Under the pieces are notes generated by a model. That model searched no databases. It was not told where the DNA came from and saw nothing but the letters and a program-made list of their open reading frames with translations. From Candidatus Bathyarchaeota archaeon (GTDB lineage Archaea > Thermoproteota > Bathyarchaeia > Bathyarchaeales > Bathycorpusculaceae): DNA of 64,000 nucleotides. Positions 38,525-48,921 of the stretch are shown here, piece after piece. Positions within the stretch are counted from its first letter, which is position 1. Each line of letters starts with the position of its first letter. The stretch covers positions 64,001 through 128,000 of the forward strand of contig CAWFFH010000003.1 in assembly GCA_963815095.1 (NCBI GenBank), written 5' to 3'. Made by a program: the position numbers and the translations under genes.

Positions 38525-39403
38525 TTGAAATTTGGAATAATGACGCGGAACATGGAAGCATGGAGCTCCACGCAAGTTCGGGAAGCACTAACAAAGAGGG
38601 GCATCCCATACGAATGCTTTACTTTTCCAAGACTTGTAGCACGATTAGCATATAGGCCATACTTTAAAGTTAATGGAACCAGCATCCTCGACGACTTGGA
38701 TGCGCTTATCATTCGCCCAATCGGACGTGGTTCATTGGAGGAATTGGTGTTCCGAATGGACATGCTCTACAAGCTGGAACGCAAAGGATTCTACATGGTG
38801 AATCCACCCACAGCAATTGAACACTGCGTCGACAAATACGACATACTTGCCATCCTTGAAGACGTGGGCGTTCCTGTACCACGCACCTTAGCCACCGAAA
38901 GCGTCAACGAAGCGCTTAAGGCTTTTAACGAACTCGGCGGCGACATCGTCGTCAAACCAATCTTTGGCTCACGCGGACAAGGCGCCACACGCGTCAACGA
39001 CATAGACATCGCCGACACCGTCTTCAAAGCCATAACCTTTCACCACGGCGTAATCTACATGCAAGAATTTGTCCCCCACGGAACCTCAGACATACGTGCC
39101 TTTGTCATCGGAGACCAAGTAGTTTCATGCATGCGCAGAGTAGCAACAGGATGGAAAACGAACTACAGCCAAGGAGCCAAACCAGCCCCAGCAACAATCA
39201 GCAAAGAATTCGAAGAAATAGCTGTGAAATCCGCTAAAGCAGTTGGCTGCAAAATCGCGGGCGTAGACATCCTTGAAGGACCAGATGGACCACGCATCGT
39301 GGACGTGAATAGCCAACCAGGCTGGAAAGGACTGCAGGTAGTTGCAAGAGTTAACATAGCCGAAGAAATAGTCAACTTTGTCTTAAAAGAACTGAAAAAG
39401 TAA
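38525..39403 (+). CDS. RimK-family ATP-grasp alpha-L-glutamate ligase (MptN/CofF-like)
   Basis: DKY, KPIFGSRG, QEF, DIR, WKTNYSQG, GVD, DVNSQPG. Confidence 0.88.
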   Translation: MKFGIMTRNMEAWSSTQVREALTKRGIPYECFTFPRLVARLAYRPYFKVNGTSILDDLDALIIRPIGRGSLEELVFRMDMLYKLERKGFYMVNPPTAIEHCVDKYDILAILEDVGVPVPRTLATESVNEALKAFNELGGDIVVKPIFGSRGQGATRVNDIDIADTVFKAITFHHGVIYMQEFVPHGTSDIRAFVIGDQVVSCMRRVATGWKTNYSQGAKPAPATISKEFEEIAVKSAKAVGCKIAGVDILEGPDGPRIVDVNSQPGWKGLQVVARVNIAEEIVNFVLKELKK

Positions 39404-40402
39404 CTACTTTCCCGAAAGAATCCGGGTATATGGGTCTTCGCTGACTTGCGGAAAAGGCGTTTCTTTTCCTTTTCTAATTAAAGTTCGTTCTTTGTTTTCG
39501 GTAAATTCTCCCAAAAAGTGGGCCGAGAGCCCGAGCTCATTTAATGCGGTTTTGACTTTCTTTTGCGCTTCAGGAGCTACAGCCGCCAAAATCGTCCCAG
39601 TCGAAGAAATTGCGAGCAATTGATCATCTGTTAGTTTAAAATGTTCTTTCAACAACCCTGCTTCCTTTGGCACAGGAATTTTTTCCCAATCTACCCTAAA
39701 CCCAACCTTTGAAGCCACAGCCAACTCGTTGAGCGCCGCCACAAACCCACCTTCAGTCGCATCATGCATCGCATGAACACCCACAACATCAGCAAGTTGG
39801 ATAGCTTCTTTAACGCAGCTCTGCATGCAAACCAGTTTGGCGAGTTCTTCTTGTTTGTCAAAGCCGAAGAGCTCCCGCGCCATCTCCGAATAGGTGAGTG
39901 AGAAGTTGGTGATTGTTTCTAACCCCAAGGGTTTTGTGCACAAAATCAGGTCGCCTGGCTTGGCGTTTCCCGGAGTAATCAACTTCGTGGGCTCTACGGT
40001 TCCATAAACGGTGCAGACTCCAAGCATGTCATTGAGGCTGCCGTACATTCCTGTGTGTCCTCGAACGATGGCTATGCCTAATTCGTCGGCGGCACTGCAG
40101 GTTTGACTCATTATTTTTTGGAATCTCTCAGATTTTGTTCCTAATGGTCCAAGGAGATTTATGGTGCAGAATTCAGGTTTTGCCCCAAACAGAGCCACAT
40201 CTGAAGCGGCATAATTGATGAGTAGCCACCCAAACCATTCCTCAGGCACACCGGTACAAGGGTCAGTTGCAACCGCTACATATTTGCCATGTAGGAGATG
40301 AACGCCTGCATCGTACCCAATCGTGGGCGGAACGATGACTCGGAAATCCTTCTTGATGCAATCCAACATTTTTTGGAGTTCTTTAGCTGCAAGTTTTCCC
40401 AA
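39404..40402 (-). CDS. AIR synthase/PurM-like superfamily protein (lacks the HypE C-terminal PRIC)
   Basis: GYDAG, ATDP, SDVA..GA, GHT, GDLI, MHDATEGG; TTG start abuts the thiT stop. Confidence 0.85.
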   Translation of the reverse strand: MGKLAAKELQKMLDCIKKDFRVIVPPTIGYDAGVHLLHGKYVAVATDPCTGVPEEWFGWLLINYAASDVALFGAKPEFCTINLLGPLGTKSERFQKIMSQTCSAADELGIAIVRGHTGMYGSLNDMLGVCTVYGTVEPTKLITPGNAKPGDLILCTKPLGLETITNFSLTYSEMARELFGFDKQEELAKLVCMQSCVKEAIQLADVVGVHAMHDATEGGFVAALNELAVASKVGFRVDWEKIPVPKEAGLLKEHFKLTDDQLLAISSTGTILAAVAPEAQKKVKTALNELGLSAHFLGEFTENKERTLIRKGKETPFPQVSEDPYTRILSGK

Positions 40403-40975
40403 TTACATATACGCTCTCAGCACATTGCTTTTCTGCAATAAGTAAAGTACGAATCCGCTTATTAGAAATTCGGGCAACAGATAGCTGCCGTTGTAGACTG
40501 TTGAGTAAACCCATGGGTTTAGGGTTGGAGCGTAGACTGGCGCCCAGAAGTACACGCCTGAAACGAAATGCATGGTGAAGCGTGCGCTGATACCGACTGC
40601 GGCTCCCACTACCGGGTGCTTAGGGAAGAAACCAGCTAATCCTAACACAGCGAACGCAAGCGGATAGTCAAGCAGCACTTGGATAATTGCATACGGAACT
40701 GGAGCGATATAGGGTAGAGCCGCGAATTGTATTAAGCCATAGATTACGCCCGCGGTTATGCCGACTTTGGGTCCGCGTCGAAGCGCCAGCCAAATAATCG
40801 GGACCATGGACGCCAAGGTGATGGAGCCGCCCTGTGGCAAGGTGTAGATGATTATGAAGCTAAGTGCGGTGGCTAAGGCAGTAAAAATCGCCAATTCAGC
40901 TAAAACTCGTGGGTTTCTAAAGGATGTTTGATATTTTTTTGATTTTTTTATGGAGTCTGGATTGTTTGTTTGCAT
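40403..40975 (-). CDS. thiT: ECF S-component thiamine transporter ThiT
   Basis: PQGGS, MVPI...RRG, QVLLDY, HFVSG, YS..YN; TPP riboswitch directly upstream. Confidence 0.93.
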   Translation of the reverse strand: MQTNNPDSIKKSKKYQTSFRNPRVLAELAIFTALATALSFIIIYTLPQGGSITLASMVPIIWLALRRGPKVGITAGVIYGLIQFAALPYIAPVPYAIIQVLLDYPLAFAVLGLAGFFPKHPVVGAAVGISARFTMHFVSGVYFWAPVYAPTLNPWVYSTVYNGSYLLPEFLISGFVLYLLQKSNVLRAYM

Positions 40976-40981
40976 TTGTTT

Positions 40982-41074
40982 TTCCCTCCGCCAGTATTAC
41001 CTGGTTCAGGTTCCTAAGGGTCGACACCAAACAGGCGTCCTCTCAGCCGAGTCATTTTCCCAGCTCCCCAAGAA
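40982..41074 (-). ncRNA. TPP (THI-box) riboswitch
   Basis: Minus strand reads TTCTT GGGGAGC...GCTGAGAG...GACCCTTAGGAACCTGAACCAGGTAATACTGGCGGAGGGAA, matching the canonical TPP aptamer; ATG lies 8 nt after GGAGGG. Confidence 0.95.
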
Positions 41075-41227
41075 CTACGGAAAATATGCGTTTCTGTAAC
41101 ATATTAGGTTTGCTAAAGCTGATTTTTCTATTTGCTGTCAAAAACCCCTGTTAAATAACAACGAGCAGGTCATGAAGCATACAGCTCTGTGGTAGACCTA
41201 CACACGCAGTTCTTACATTTCTGTATC

Positions 41228-44843: not shown

Positions 44844-47800
44844 TCAGTTGTGTTTTCGTCGTCTGCGTCTGCTTGGGGGGTTTGGTCGTTGTTGTCCGCT
44901 TCCGTTATCAGTTCCGAATGCGCCGCCTGGGACGCTTCTGAAGGGTGGGACGGAATGTGGGCCTCCCTCCACCAATGAAATAGTTTCTATTGCTGGTTCT
45001 TCAAGAACTTTTTCAAGGGTAGTTTCGATTGGAGCTTGCTCTGTTACTTCGAAGGCTTGGAGCGGAGCTTCAATTACGCGTTGTTCTTCGTGAGCTGCTT
45101 CTGCAATTGGCTCGTTTGCGATGATTGCCTCTGCTTGAGCTTCGACTGGTGTTTCAATTATTGGGGCTGCTTCAACAACAGGAGCTTCTGCGATTATTGG
45201 AGTTTCGACTGCTGGAGCCTCAATAACTGGAACTTCTTCCACTGCGATTGTTGGTTGCTCGATTGGAGCTGCTTCAACAACTGCTACTTGAGCTTCCTCA
45301 ACGATTGCAGCTGGCACTTCAACTGGTGCTTCGATGATTGGAGCAGCTTGGATTACTTGTTCTTCGACTATTGGCTCTGCGATTACTGATTCATTTACTA
45401 TTTCAACTGCTGCTTCTGGCTCAGCTACAACTACTTGAGCCTCTTCTATTGGGGCAGCTTCTACAATTGGAGTTTCTTCAACGATTGGAGCTTCAATTAC
45501 TGGAGCTTCTAATATGGTTTCAACTGCTGGAGCCTCAACTGGTGCAGCTTCCTCAACAATTGGAGCTGCTTCTGTTGGGGCAGTTTCAACTGGGGCTTGC
45601 TCGATTGGAGCGGCTTCTTCTATGATTATTGCGGGAGCTCCTTCAACAATTGCCACTGGAGCTTCAATTGGTGTTTCAATTATTGGGGCTGCTTCAACAA
45701 CAGGAGCTTCTGCGATTATTGGAGTTTCGACTGCTGGAGCCTCAATAACTGGAACTTCTTCCACTGCGATTGTTGGTTGCTCGATTGGAGCTGCTTCAAC
45801 AACTGCTACTTGAGCTTCCTCAACGATTGCAGCTGGCACTTCAACTGGTGCTTCGATGATTGGAGCAGCTTGGATTACTTGTTCTTCGACTATTGGCTCT
45901 GCGATTACTGATTCATTTACTATTTCAACTGCTGCTTCTGGCTCAGCTACAACTACTTGAGCCTCTTCTATTGGGGCAGCTTCTACAATTGGAGTTTCTT
46001 CAACGATTGGAGCTTCAATTACTGGAGCTTCTAATATGGTTTCAACTGCTGGAGCCTCAACTGGTGCAGCTTCCTCAACAATTGGAGCTGCTTCTGTTGG
46101 GGCAGTTTCAACTGGGGCTTGCTCGATTGGAGCGGCTTCTTCTATGATTATTGCGGGAGCTCCTTCAACAATTGCCACTGGAGCTTCAATTGGTGTTTCA
46201 ATTATTGGGGCTGCTTCAACAACAGGAGCTTCTGCGATTATTGGAGTTTCGACTGCTGGAGCCTCAATAACTGGAACTTCTTCCACTGCGATTGTTGGTT
46301 GCTCGATTGGAGCTGCTTCAACAACTGCTACTTGAGCTTCCTCAACGATTGCAGCTGGCACTTCAACTGGTGCTTCGATGATTGGAGCAGCTTGGATTAC
46401 TTGTTCTTCGACTATTGGCTCTGCGATTACTGATTCATTTACTATTTCAACTGCTGCTTCTGGCTCAGCTACAACTACTTGAGCCTCTTCTATTGGGGCA
46501 GCTTCTACAATTGGAGTTTCTTCAACGATTGGAGCTTCAATTACTGGAGCTTCTAATATGGTTTCAACTGCTGGAGCCTCAACTGGTGCAGCTTCCTCAA
46601 CAATTGGAGCTGCTTCTGTTGGGGCAGTTTCAATTGGGGCTTGCTCGATTGGAGCGGCTTCTTCTATGATTATTGCGGGAGCTTCTTCAACAATTGCCAC
46701 TGGAGCTTCAATTGGTGTTTCAATTATTGGGGCTGCTTCAACAACAGGAGCTTCTGCGATTATTGGAGTTTCGACTGCTGGAGCCTCAATAACTGGAACT
46801 TCTTCCACTGCGATTGTTGGTTGCTCGATTGGAGCTGCTTCAACAACTGCTACTTGAGCTTCCTCAACGATTGCAGCTGGCACTTCAACTGGTGCTTCGA
46901 TGATTGGAGCAGCTTGGATTACTTGTTCTTCGACTATTGGCTCTGCGATTACTGATTCATTTACTATTTCAACTGCTGCTTCTGGCTCAGCTACAACTAC
47001 TTGAGCCTCTTCTATTGGGGCAGCTTCTACAATTGGAGTTTCTTCAACGATTGGAGCTTCAATTACTGGAGCTTCTAATATGGTTTCAACTGCTGGAGCC
47101 TCAACTGGTGCAGCTTCCTCAACAATTGGAGCTGCTTCTGTTGGGGCAGTTTCAACTGGGGCTTGCTCGATTGGAGCGGCTTCTTCTATGATTATTGCGG
47201 GAGCTCCTTCAACAATTGCCACTGGAGCTTCAATTGGTGTTTCAATTATTGGGGCTGCTTCAACAACAGGAGCTTCAACTACTGGAACTTCTGCTGCAAT
47301 TTCAACTGCTTGAGCCTCAACAATTGGGGCTTCCTCAACTGGGATAACTTCAATTGGAGCTGTCTCTATTGGGGCGGCTTCTTCGACAACTGGAGTTGCT
47401 TCAACTGGTGCAGCTTCCTCAACAATTGGGACTGCTTCTGCAACGATTTCAACTGCTGGAGCCTCAATAACTGGGGCTACTTCAACAACTGGAGTGCTTT
47501 CAACTACTGGAGCGGTTTCAACTGGGGCTTCGATGGTGGCTTGCTCAACTTGAGCTTCCACTGGGGCCTCTAAAGGGACCGCTGTCTCCACTGGAGCCGC
47601 TTCAACGATTGGAGCTTCAACTGGAACAGTTCCTACTGGAGCACACTCAACTGGGGCCGCTTCGGCTACTGGAGCTTCTGCAGGGGCAGTTTCAATTGGC
47701 GCTGTTTCGATTGGAGATGCTTCTTCAACCAGAGCGACTGGAGCTTCTTCTGCGATTGCTACTGGGGCTTCGACTGGTGTTTCAATTATTGGGGCTGTTT

Positions 47801-48815
47801 CAACAACTGGAGCTTCTGCGATTATTGGAGTTTCGACTGCTGGAGCCTCAATAACTGGAACTTCTTCCACTGCGATTGTTGGTTGCTCGATTGGAGCTGC
47901 TTCAACAACTGCTACTTGAGCTTCCTCAACGATTGCAGCTGGCACTTCAACTGGTGCTTCGATGATTGGAGCGGCTTCTTCAACCACTGGAGTTGCTTCT
48001 TCAATAACTGGAACTGCTTCGACTACAGGAGCTTCTATTGCTATAGATTCAACTACTGGAGCTTCTTCAACAATTGGTGTGCTTTCGATTACTGGAGCGG
48101 TTTCAACTGGGGCTTCGATGGTGGCTTGCTCAACTTGAGCTTCCACTGGGGCCTCTAAAGGGACCGCTGTCTCCACTGGAGCCGCTTCAACGATTGGAGC
48201 AGTCTCTGCTGGAGCACACTCAACTGGGGCCGCTTCGGCTACTGGAGCTTCTGCAGGGGCAGTTTCAATTGGCGCTGCTTCAACTGGACAAGTTTCAATA
48301 ACTGGCGCAGTTTCAACAGGTGTAGCTTCCACGGGGACCTCTAAAGGGACCGCTTCTACCGCCGTCGGTTGAGCTGCTGGAGCTTCCATTATTGGAGCTG
48401 GTTCAGGAGCTTGAATTTGTTGTGCGCAGGGAAAAATTTGGTCAATTGCTTGTTTTATTACGCCTAATTCTGTTCTGGTTGTTTCGAGCGTGTTTGAGAG
48501 AAGATTTATTTCCCGACCATAGCTTTCCTCGTCGATTTCTCCTACGACGTGTTGGATTTCGTAGTTAGCGAGGAGGGTTTCTAAGGTTTTTAGTTGGCCT
48601 TCTAGTTCCAGGGTTTTTGTTTGCATTTTTTCTGCGAGGTCTTTTCTTTGTTTTTCGATTTCAATTATTGCTGAGCTTATGTCGCCTGTGAATGAGTCGC
48701 GTGTTGCTTGTGAGATTTTGCCTGAAGTAAAAAGGTTGTCTAAGGCTTGCTTCTTTTTATTTGCTATTTCGTATTCTTCATTTAATCGTTTAAATGTATA
48801 TTTCCATGAAATCAC
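44844..48815 (-). CDS. CdvA-like coiled-coil protein with a very long acidic E/A/P/V/I low-complexity repeat tail
   Basis: N-terminal ISWK..F..L.EEYE...KKKQALDNL...GKIS...YEIQHVVGEI; GTG at 48815 after GGTG; C-terminus probably frameshifted near 44966. Confidence 0.75.
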   Translation of the reverse strand: MISWKYTFKRLNEEYEIANKKKQALDNLFTSGKISQATRDSFTGDISSAIIEIEKQRKDLAEKMQTKTLELEGQLKTLETLLANYEIQHVVGEIDEESYGREINLLSNTLETTRTELGVIKQAIDQIFPCAQQIQAPEPAPIMEAPAAQPTAVEAVPLEVPVEATPVETAPVIETCPVEAAPIETAPAEAPVAEAAPVECAPAETAPIVEAAPVETAVPLEAPVEAQVEQATIEAPVETAPVIESTPIVEEAPVVESIAIEAPVVEAVPVIEEATPVVEEAAPIIEAPVEVPAAIVEEAQVAVVEAAPIEQPTIAVEEVPVIEAPAVETPIIAEAPVVETAPIIETPVEAPVAIAEEAPVALVEEASPIETAPIETAPAEAPVAEAAPVECAPVGTVPVEAPIVEAAPVETAVPLEAPVEAQVEQATIEAPVETAPVVESTPVVEVAPVIEAPAVEIVAEAVPIVEEAAPVEATPVVEEAAPIETAPIEVIPVEEAPIVEAQAVEIAAEVPVVEAPVVEAAPIIETPIEAPVAIVEGAPAIIIEEAAPIEQAPVETAPTEAAPIVEEAAPVEAPAVETILEAPVIEAPIVEETPIVEAAPIEEAQVVVAEPEAAVEIVNESVIAEPIVEEQVIQAAPIIEAPVEVPAAIVEEAQVAVVEAAPIEQPTIAVEEVPVIEAPAVETPIIAEAPVVEAAPIIETPIEAPVAIVEEAPAIIIEEAAPIEQAPIETAPTEAAPIVEEAAPVEAPAVETILEAPVIEAPIVEETPIVEAAPIEEAQVVVAEPEAAVEIVNESVIAEPIVEEQVIQAAPIIEAPVEVPAAIVEEAQVAVVEAAPIEQPTIAVEEVPVIEAPAVETPIIAEAPVVEAAPIIETPIEAPVAIVEGAPAIIIEEAAPIEQAPVETAPTEAAPIVEEAAPVEAPAVETILEAPVIEAPIVEETPIVEAAPIEEAQVVVAEPEAAVEIVNESVIAEPIVEEQVIQAAPIIEAPVEVPAAIVEEAQVAVVEAAPIEQPTIAVEEVPVIEAPAVETPIIAEAPVVEAAPIIETPIEAPVAIVEGAPAIIIEEAAPIEQAPVETAPTEAAPIVEEAAPVEAPAVETILEAPVIEAPIVEETPIVEAAPIEEAQVVVAEPEAAVEIVNESVIAEPIVEEQVIQAAPIIEAPVEVPAAIVEEAQVAVVEAAPIEQPTIAVEEVPVIEAPAVETPIIAEAPVVEAAPIIETPVEAQAEAIIANEPIAEAAHEEQRVIEAPLQAFEVTEQAPIETTLEKVLEEPAIETISLVEGGPHSVPPFRSVPGGAFGTDNGSGQQRPNPPSRRRRRKHN
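45147..47276. repeat. 522-bp (174-aa) tandem repeat, about 4.1 copies
   Basis: Identical shadow ORFs start at 45338/45860/46382/46904; I see only two substitutions, in one unit (near 46633 and 46684); partial copy at about 47776-47970. Confidence 0.93.
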
Positions 48816-48921
48816 GTTTAGGGCACCGTAGCATCCATAGGATAGTTGAGAATTAACGTTTGTTAACATGCGCATATATCGCTAACTATTAATTTCGGGT
48901 GGGTTAGCAGAAAAATGGAAA

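Follow-up and report, generated by a model that had tools for sequence, protein, structure and literature searches.

The thiamine-phosphate kinase ThiL (TIGR01379) belongs to the same pathway as the protein analysed here and shares with it the fold, the acidic Mg-ATP motifs and the arm of thiamine that is modified. A key difference is the acceptor, which is the phosphate of thiamine monophosphate (TMP) for ThiL, while the acceptor proposed for the present protein is the hydroxyl of free thiamine. HypE carries a KDPTRGG motif resembling the HD.TEGG motif of our protein, which has no PRIC tail, and both HypE and SelD are found in a hydrogenase or selenium context, in contrast to the thiamine context of the present gene. 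SelD has a lysine in its N-terminal loop of which the invariant N-terminal lysine in our protein is reminiscent. The proposed step itself, the phosphorylation of salvaged thiamine, is performed by ThiK (YcfN; APH fold) and by TPK/THI80, but the folds of these enzymes are unrelated to that of the present protein; the thiamine kinase activity is classified as EC 2.7.1.89. To our knowledge, none of the characterised superfamily members compared (PurM, PurL, ThiL, SelD and HypE) phosphorylates an alcohol, and alcohol phosphorylation, if true, would be new to the PurM superfamily as far as these members show.

The arrangement of genes also has precedents, since CblT with CblS and PnuT with its trapping kinase follow the same logic, in which the carrier of a vitamin or precursor is paired with a kinase that traps its cargo. 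CblS may be a member of the PurM/AIRS fold, as an earlier note on this DNA has it. In published work, CblT is described as a transporter that is paired with the alpha-ribazole kinase CblS (PMC6461909), metabolic trapping of thiamine is described for PnuT (PMC5749112), and the term 'PurM-like' denotes AIR synthetase itself (PMC4215014). No description of a PurM-fold thiamine kinase, of a ThiT-linked kinase or of the family formed by clades T and N (see below) was found in the literature searched, outside which most subscription journals lie. The activity (that of ThiK), the operon logic of a carrier with a trapping kinase, and the fold are already known; what appears to be new is that a distinct PurM-fold clade, misannotated in public sources, is assigned a place in thiamine salvage, and that its large sister clade is strongly associated with thiamine genes. 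Many environmental microbes are thiamine auxotrophs and predictions of vitamer use from genomes depend on the known salvage enzymes, and the gene described here is a concrete candidate for the conversion of thiamine to TMP in an order of Bathyarchaeia that has both ThiT and ThiL, but in which no known enzyme for this conversion was found.

The window, i.e., the whole stretch of DNA analysed (64,000 nucleotides from a Candidatus Bathyarchaeota genome), contains a TPP riboswitch, thiT and a PurM/AIRS-superfamily gene in this order (Table 1). The operon of thiT under a TPP riboswitch that the earlier note had read from the letters was borne out by matches to RF00059, PF09515 and TIGR02357 (Table 1). 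The PurM-like gene was found to belong to the TPP-riboswitch regulon, with the aptamer lying upstream on the same strand, and a genome-wide scan with RF00059 showed this aptamer as the sole TPP riboswitch found. The 3' end of the aptamer spans a GGAGG-like stretch and the ATG of thiT, and the overlap between aptamer and first gene was also observed in L034, L036, L143, L146 and L140, a recurrent layout which fits translational control. The junction DNA reads TAT ATG TAA TTG GGA AAA, so that the TTG start, which had been proposed to follow the thiT stop immediately, is the first codon past it; in an alignment of 104 family members the third residue (K3) is invariant and the second (G2) is at least 90% conserved, and this conservation indicates that the TTG start is real and speaks against initiation at the ATG of codon 12. 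The stop codon of the PurM-like gene abuts the convergent RimK/MptN-like gene, and the operon thus consists of two genes. ThiT working alone without an ECF module was ruled out by the two EcfT/CbiQ homologues located elsewhere in the genome. In terms of expression, one 151-base RNA contig (40159-40309) lies inside the PurM-like gene and was present in two RNA libraries, possibly from one data set, while the expression search matched the stretch only in part, in 8 runs, which is too little for statements on transcription, co-transcription or regulation.

Table 1. Positions of the features discussed; numbers without a prefix are positions in the window, the others refer to the genome, contig or locus named.
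Feature	Position	Strand	Family assignment and remarks
TPP riboswitch aptamer (THI element)	40966-41080	minus	RF00059, 61.4 bits vs gathering score 54.3
thiT, thiamine-specific S component of ECF-type transporter, 190 aa	40403-40975	minus	PF09515, E 1.3e-40; TIGR02357, 125.7 bits vs cut-off 108.45
PurM/AIRS-superfamily gene (clade T), candidate thiamine kinase, 332 aa	39404-40402	minus	PF00586, PF02769; TTG start
RimK/MptN-like gene, convergent	38525-39403	plus	Its end abuts the stop of the PurM-like gene
ORF of 1343 aa, repetitive	44844-48875	minus	
ECF-type S component, same genome	L002:2471-2998	minus	PF07155, 103.5 bits
Clade S paralogue, same genome	G000:C3:1138388-1139260 (L002:1441-2532)	minus	Directly downstream of the S component
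KaiC-like gene separating thiT from the PurM-like gene, relatives	L034:776-1486; L035:766-1485		Equivalent gaps in L044, L048, L051, L053, L054, L056, L057

The protein is clearly a member of the PurM/AIRS superfamily, with 43.8 bits for PF00586 (cut-off 24) and 83.7 bits for PF02769 (cut-off 23.1). An AlphaFold2 model built with the 104-sequence alignment reached a mean pLDDT of 96.3, and a Foldseek comparison of the model with SelD, HypE, ThiL and PurM structures returned a probability of 1.00 for the PurM-superfamily fold. The SelD, HypE and ThiL structures were about equally close (TM 0.66-0.82), the nearest being HypE at up to 0.82 with SelD at 0.76, and no solved structure was closer. 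All the motifs listed in the earlier note were located, namely D31-A, T46-D47-P48, S67-D68-V-A, G115-H116-T117 and H213-D214-A-T-E-G-G, and the absence of a HypE PRIC terminus also held, as the protein ends in RILSGK. The sequence further contains D68-VALF-G73-A-K-P76, with invariant D68 and G73 and with P76 conserved to at least 90%, and this stretch corresponds to D-x4-G-A-x-P, the conserved ATP motif of the superfamily.

In comparison to the curated families, the window protein scored below every equivalog cut-off. The ThiL model TIGR01379 gave 86.9 bits against a cut-off of 184.15 (256.7 bits for the genome's own ThiL), the SelD model TIGR00476 gave 86.2 bits against 125, and the HypE model TIGR02124 gave 82 bits against 251.6, while the genome's own HypE scored 357.9 bits and ends in PRIC; identity with each of the three was rejected. 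The window protein had no match to the ThiK model TIGR02721, and its resemblance to ThiK lies in the proposed function only. Nearly all source names among the best 120 hits of a word-indexed protein search were HypE or 'hydrogenase maturation factor', and a protein atlas names the relatives generically as 'HypE family' or 'AIR synthase family'. Judged by these scores and the missing terminus, the HypE label is wrong for the window protein. Such naming can inflate the counts of hydrogenase maturation genes, and in many phyla it keeps a member of the TPP regulon out of sight.

The thiamine pathway of the genome (98.45% complete) was then compared with this candidate. A separate canonical ThiL is present and no thiamine pyrophosphokinase (TPK) was found in the genome, which answers a point raised in the earlier note as bearing on its proposal. 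ThiN was likewise not found in the genome, the best ThiE match was 16.4 bits against a cut-off of 27, and the best ThiD match was 21.4 bits against 27 in a search that covered this genome and five relatives. The best ThiK match in the genome was 23.1 bits against 299.45 and lay outside the window gene, and there are weak matches to APH-type kinases which could conceal a ThiK-like enzyme. Since no ThiN, ThiE or ThiD was found, the organism appears to be a thiamine auxotroph, which cannot build TMP out of precursors and depends on imported thiamine. The conversion of thiamine to TMP is the step without any known gene in this genome, though ThiL, which needs TMP, is kept.

Based on the observed parts, their order and conservation, the fold, and the absence of alternative genes, we consider it reasonably probable, from sequence and model comparison, that the gene product is a thiamine kinase with the PurM/AIRS fold that uses ATP and would trap imported thiamine as TMP for use by ThiL. 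When TPP is scarce, the riboswitch would carry no ligand and would leave the ribosome-binding stretch and the start codon (ATG) of thiT free, so that thiT and the abutting kinase gene would, as we infer from their arrangement, be translated together. ThiT, probably with a shared ECF module, would import thiamine, and the kinase would move the gamma-phosphate of ATP onto the hydroxyl of the thiamine hydroxyethyl arm (thiamine + ATP to TMP + ADP), which is the substrate and reaction that we infer. The enzyme would presumably be a homodimer like its relatives, with an acidic Mg-ATP site formed by D31, D47, D68, D214 and E217 and with the invariant Lys3, and the separate canonical ThiL would then turn TMP into TPP. 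ThiT proteins also bind TMP and TPP, the import of which would make a thiamine kinase unnecessary. The earlier note had proposed a ThiT-linked kinase acting on imported thiamine or on a precursor; the first half of this proposal gained from the missing TMP step, the phyletic pattern and the context of the sister clade, while the second half is disfavoured, because phosphorylated thiazole or hydroxymethylpyrimidine (HMP) would be useless without a TMP synthase.

The results also showed that the arrangement is strongly conserved among relatives. Orthologues with 52-100% identity have thiT directly upstream in 30/30 loci and in 22 out of another 23, with the remaining locus cut at its 5' end; the genomes behind the two sets may overlap. 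A TPP riboswitch was detected in 18 of 20 scanned orthologous loci (29 were available, and one of the misses lies at the edge of its locus) and in 4/5 further loci. The co-occurrence with thiT and the THI-box, which the earlier note had named as a check of its proposal, is thus a conserved one, and the arrangement of riboswitch, thiT and gene is not due to chance. Of 401 genomes drawn evenly from the phylum, 28 were found to have an orthologue, and each of these belongs to the same order as the window; there was also one weaker hit at 40% identity which was ThiN-linked. As a separate observation, nine loci of deeper-branching lineages have a gene for a single-domain KaiC/RecA-like P-loop ATPase of about 236 aa (PF06745) between thiT and the PurM-like gene, with the KaiC assignment confirmed by Pfam in two of the nine. 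The order-wide conservation of TPP riboswitches in Bathyarchaeia, with the aptamer over the start codon, is also an observation in its own right, and a literature search found nothing on riboswitches in Bathyarchaeia.

The distribution of the gene was further set against that of the known thiamine enzymes in 61 relatives, of which 36 carry it, all 36 with ThiT hits. ThiN or full-length ThiE was found in 0/36 carriers versus 20/25 non-carriers, a contrast which overstates the number of events as the relatives are not independent. The non-carriers have ThiN in 15 cases, in frames of ThiD-ThiN size, and ThiE in 5. Carriers and non-carriers both occur within families f1 and f7, indicating that more than one switch has taken place. 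ThiL was over its cut-off in 57 of the 61 relatives, including 43/43 high-quality genomes, and TPK was found in 0/61. Five relatives (G037, G038, G048, G056 and G059) have thiT without the PurM-like gene. One of these, G059, is 97% complete and has thiT with neither the PurM-like gene nor a TMP synthase, a pattern which suggests that thiamine is usable by other means there and that the PurM-like gene is not the sole possible route. In G014 and G028 (L031), the gene has internal stop codons and only fragments of thiT remain, with ThiN and ThiE also lacking; the gene and thiT decay together in these two genomes, where an assembly error is possible.

The family extends far beyond this order: the word-indexed protein search gave 1725 matches at E <= 1e-5, and a HMMER search against clusters at 50% identity gave 113 representatives at E <= 1e-30. 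A phylogeny was calculated with FastTree from 126 sequences, after L031, L059, L082, L097 and L114 had been dropped because of wrong-frame or truncated ORFs. The ThiT-linked sequences formed clade T with a support of 0.887, which rises to 1.0 if the clade takes in L060, a locus with a convergent thiT and a riboswitch. Its sister, clade N, had a support of 0.978 and the node joining the two 0.996, while the labelled members of a further group, clade S, fell outside T and N with poor support as a group (0.118). Clade N is widespread in archaea and bacteria. Thiamine linkage was found for 36 of 57 loci of clade N type or more distant, a number composed of the 30 loci with ThiN, ThiE, ThiD, Thiamine_BP or ThiT within two genes (out of 56 with callable flanking ORFs, L061 having none), of further ThiN fusions, and of L082, which has the riboswitch only. 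Pfam-confirmed ThiN fusions are N-terminal in L064, L067 and P0167 and C-terminal in L101, L104, L106, L111 and P0175, and L110 resembles L111 by eye. Of the 56 loci scanned between L061 and L117, 9 have a TPP riboswitch upstream, and the scans around family members showed no cobalamin riboswitch. The true ThiL is present in 5/5 clade N genomes tested, so clade N is no substitute for ThiL; a true ThiM is present in 11/44 sister-clade genomes, including all five with C-terminal ThiN fusions, and TPK in 4/44. As regards other fusions, P0216 is joined to a HAD-type phosphatase domain and P0205 to a YacP-like NYN domain.

Residues K3, D31, D47, D68, D214 and E217 are conserved in clades T, N and S. 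By comparison, H35, W56, Y64, F94, Y133, N166, Q194, N225, T268 and Y325 are invariant residues specific to clade T, a set rich in aromatics, and position 268 is Thr in clade T, always Glu in clade N and always Ser in clade S. The residues specific to clade T are candidates for the substrate pocket. A shift from thiazole alcohol in clade N to thiamine in clade T could be a small step, as thiazole kinase acts on the same hydroxyl.

Elsewhere in the same genome, beyond the window, lies another non-canonical PurM-like paralogue, which is 33% identical to the window protein, belongs to clade S and likewise follows an S component (Table 1); the organism therefore has two pairs of an S component with a PurM-like gene. 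Out of 20 related loci, at least 10 also have this pair of a PF07155 S component with a clade S gene, and a riboswitch was not detected beside it. A further cassette, consisting of a PF07155-like S component, a SAM methyltransferase, a PurM-like gene and ThiE, was observed in the relatives G015, G042 and G022 (L140, L146 and L147). A TPP riboswitch heads it in L140 and L146, and in L147 it adjoins the same RimK gene as the thiT pair of the window. ThiD, true ThiM and true Thi4 were not found in these three genomes (the matches of the Thi4 search were short, N-terminal and of the dinucleotide-binding type only), which leaves their ThiE without a known source of substrate.

These wider data bear on the alternatives to thiamine kinase activity. 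The protein may carry out some other ATP-dependent step on a thiamine compound, such as making TPP directly from thiamine, phosphorylating TPP, repairing or activating a damaged or analogue vitamer that ThiT has taken up, or assisting the transporter, and we regard this as rather unlikely on balance. The chemistry of the superfamily is diverse and includes the conversion of ATP to AMP by SelD, the riboswitch cassette with the methyltransferase and ThiE shows that the family takes part in chemistry outside the standard pathway, and the phosphatase fusion of P0216 points the same way. However, direct TPP synthesis would make ThiL dispensable, yet ThiL is kept in all the high-quality relatives; in addition, the riboswitch control shared with the importer fits a step that is needed when TPP is low, and no further partner gene is conserved in the operon.

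The possibility that the protein is a second thiamine-phosphate kinase, ThiL-like and co-regulated with the importer, which turns imported or endogenous TMP into TPP, seems to us still less probable. A phosphate as the target of phosphorylation is established chemistry in the superfamily, ThiL is among the three nearest curated families and of the same fold, and TMP is among the ligands of ThiT. Such an enzyme would nevertheless be redundant beside the canonical ThiL of this genome and of nearly all the relatives, as it would be in the five sister-clade genomes with a true ThiL, and it would not account for the restriction of the gene to genomes that lack the TMP synthase. A kinase of a thiamine precursor (hydroxyethylthiazole or hydroxymethylpyrimidine), ThiM- or ThiD-like, is very improbable for the window protein, for while the sister clade adjoins or is fused to the TMP synthases ThiN and ThiE, L093 has its PurM-like gene in the usual ThiM place of ThiD-ThiE operons and full-length ThiM was not found in 33/44 sister-clade genomes, phosphorylated precursors could not be joined without ThiN or ThiE in the window's genome or the 36 carriers, the partner transporter scores as a thiamine-specific ThiT equivalog, and the five genomes with C-terminal ThiN fusions have a true ThiM besides.

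With thiamine kinase activity as the preferred reading for the window protein, a broader and tentative possibility, which we put forward with less confidence, is that clades T, N and S together might form a widespread unrecognised class of PurM-fold small-molecule kinases for vitamin salvage. The Bathyarchaeia members might then pair one-to-one with ECF S components for import and trapping, where ThiT with clade T would trap thiamine, the PF07155-type S component with clade S would trap another cargo, and the riboswitch-controlled cassette, in which the kinase stands with an S component, a methyltransferase and ThiE, might handle another vitamer. Clade N, often ThiN-fused, could be an overlooked member of the TPP regulon in many bacteria and archaea, phosphorylating the hydroxyethyl arm of the thiazole alcohol and/or of thiamine.

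Apart from the thiamine locus, the window contains a 1343-aa ORF (Table 1), nearly all of which consists of repeats rich in Pro, Val, Glu and Ala after a coiled-coil-like N-terminus, and its product is probably a surface or low-complexity protein.
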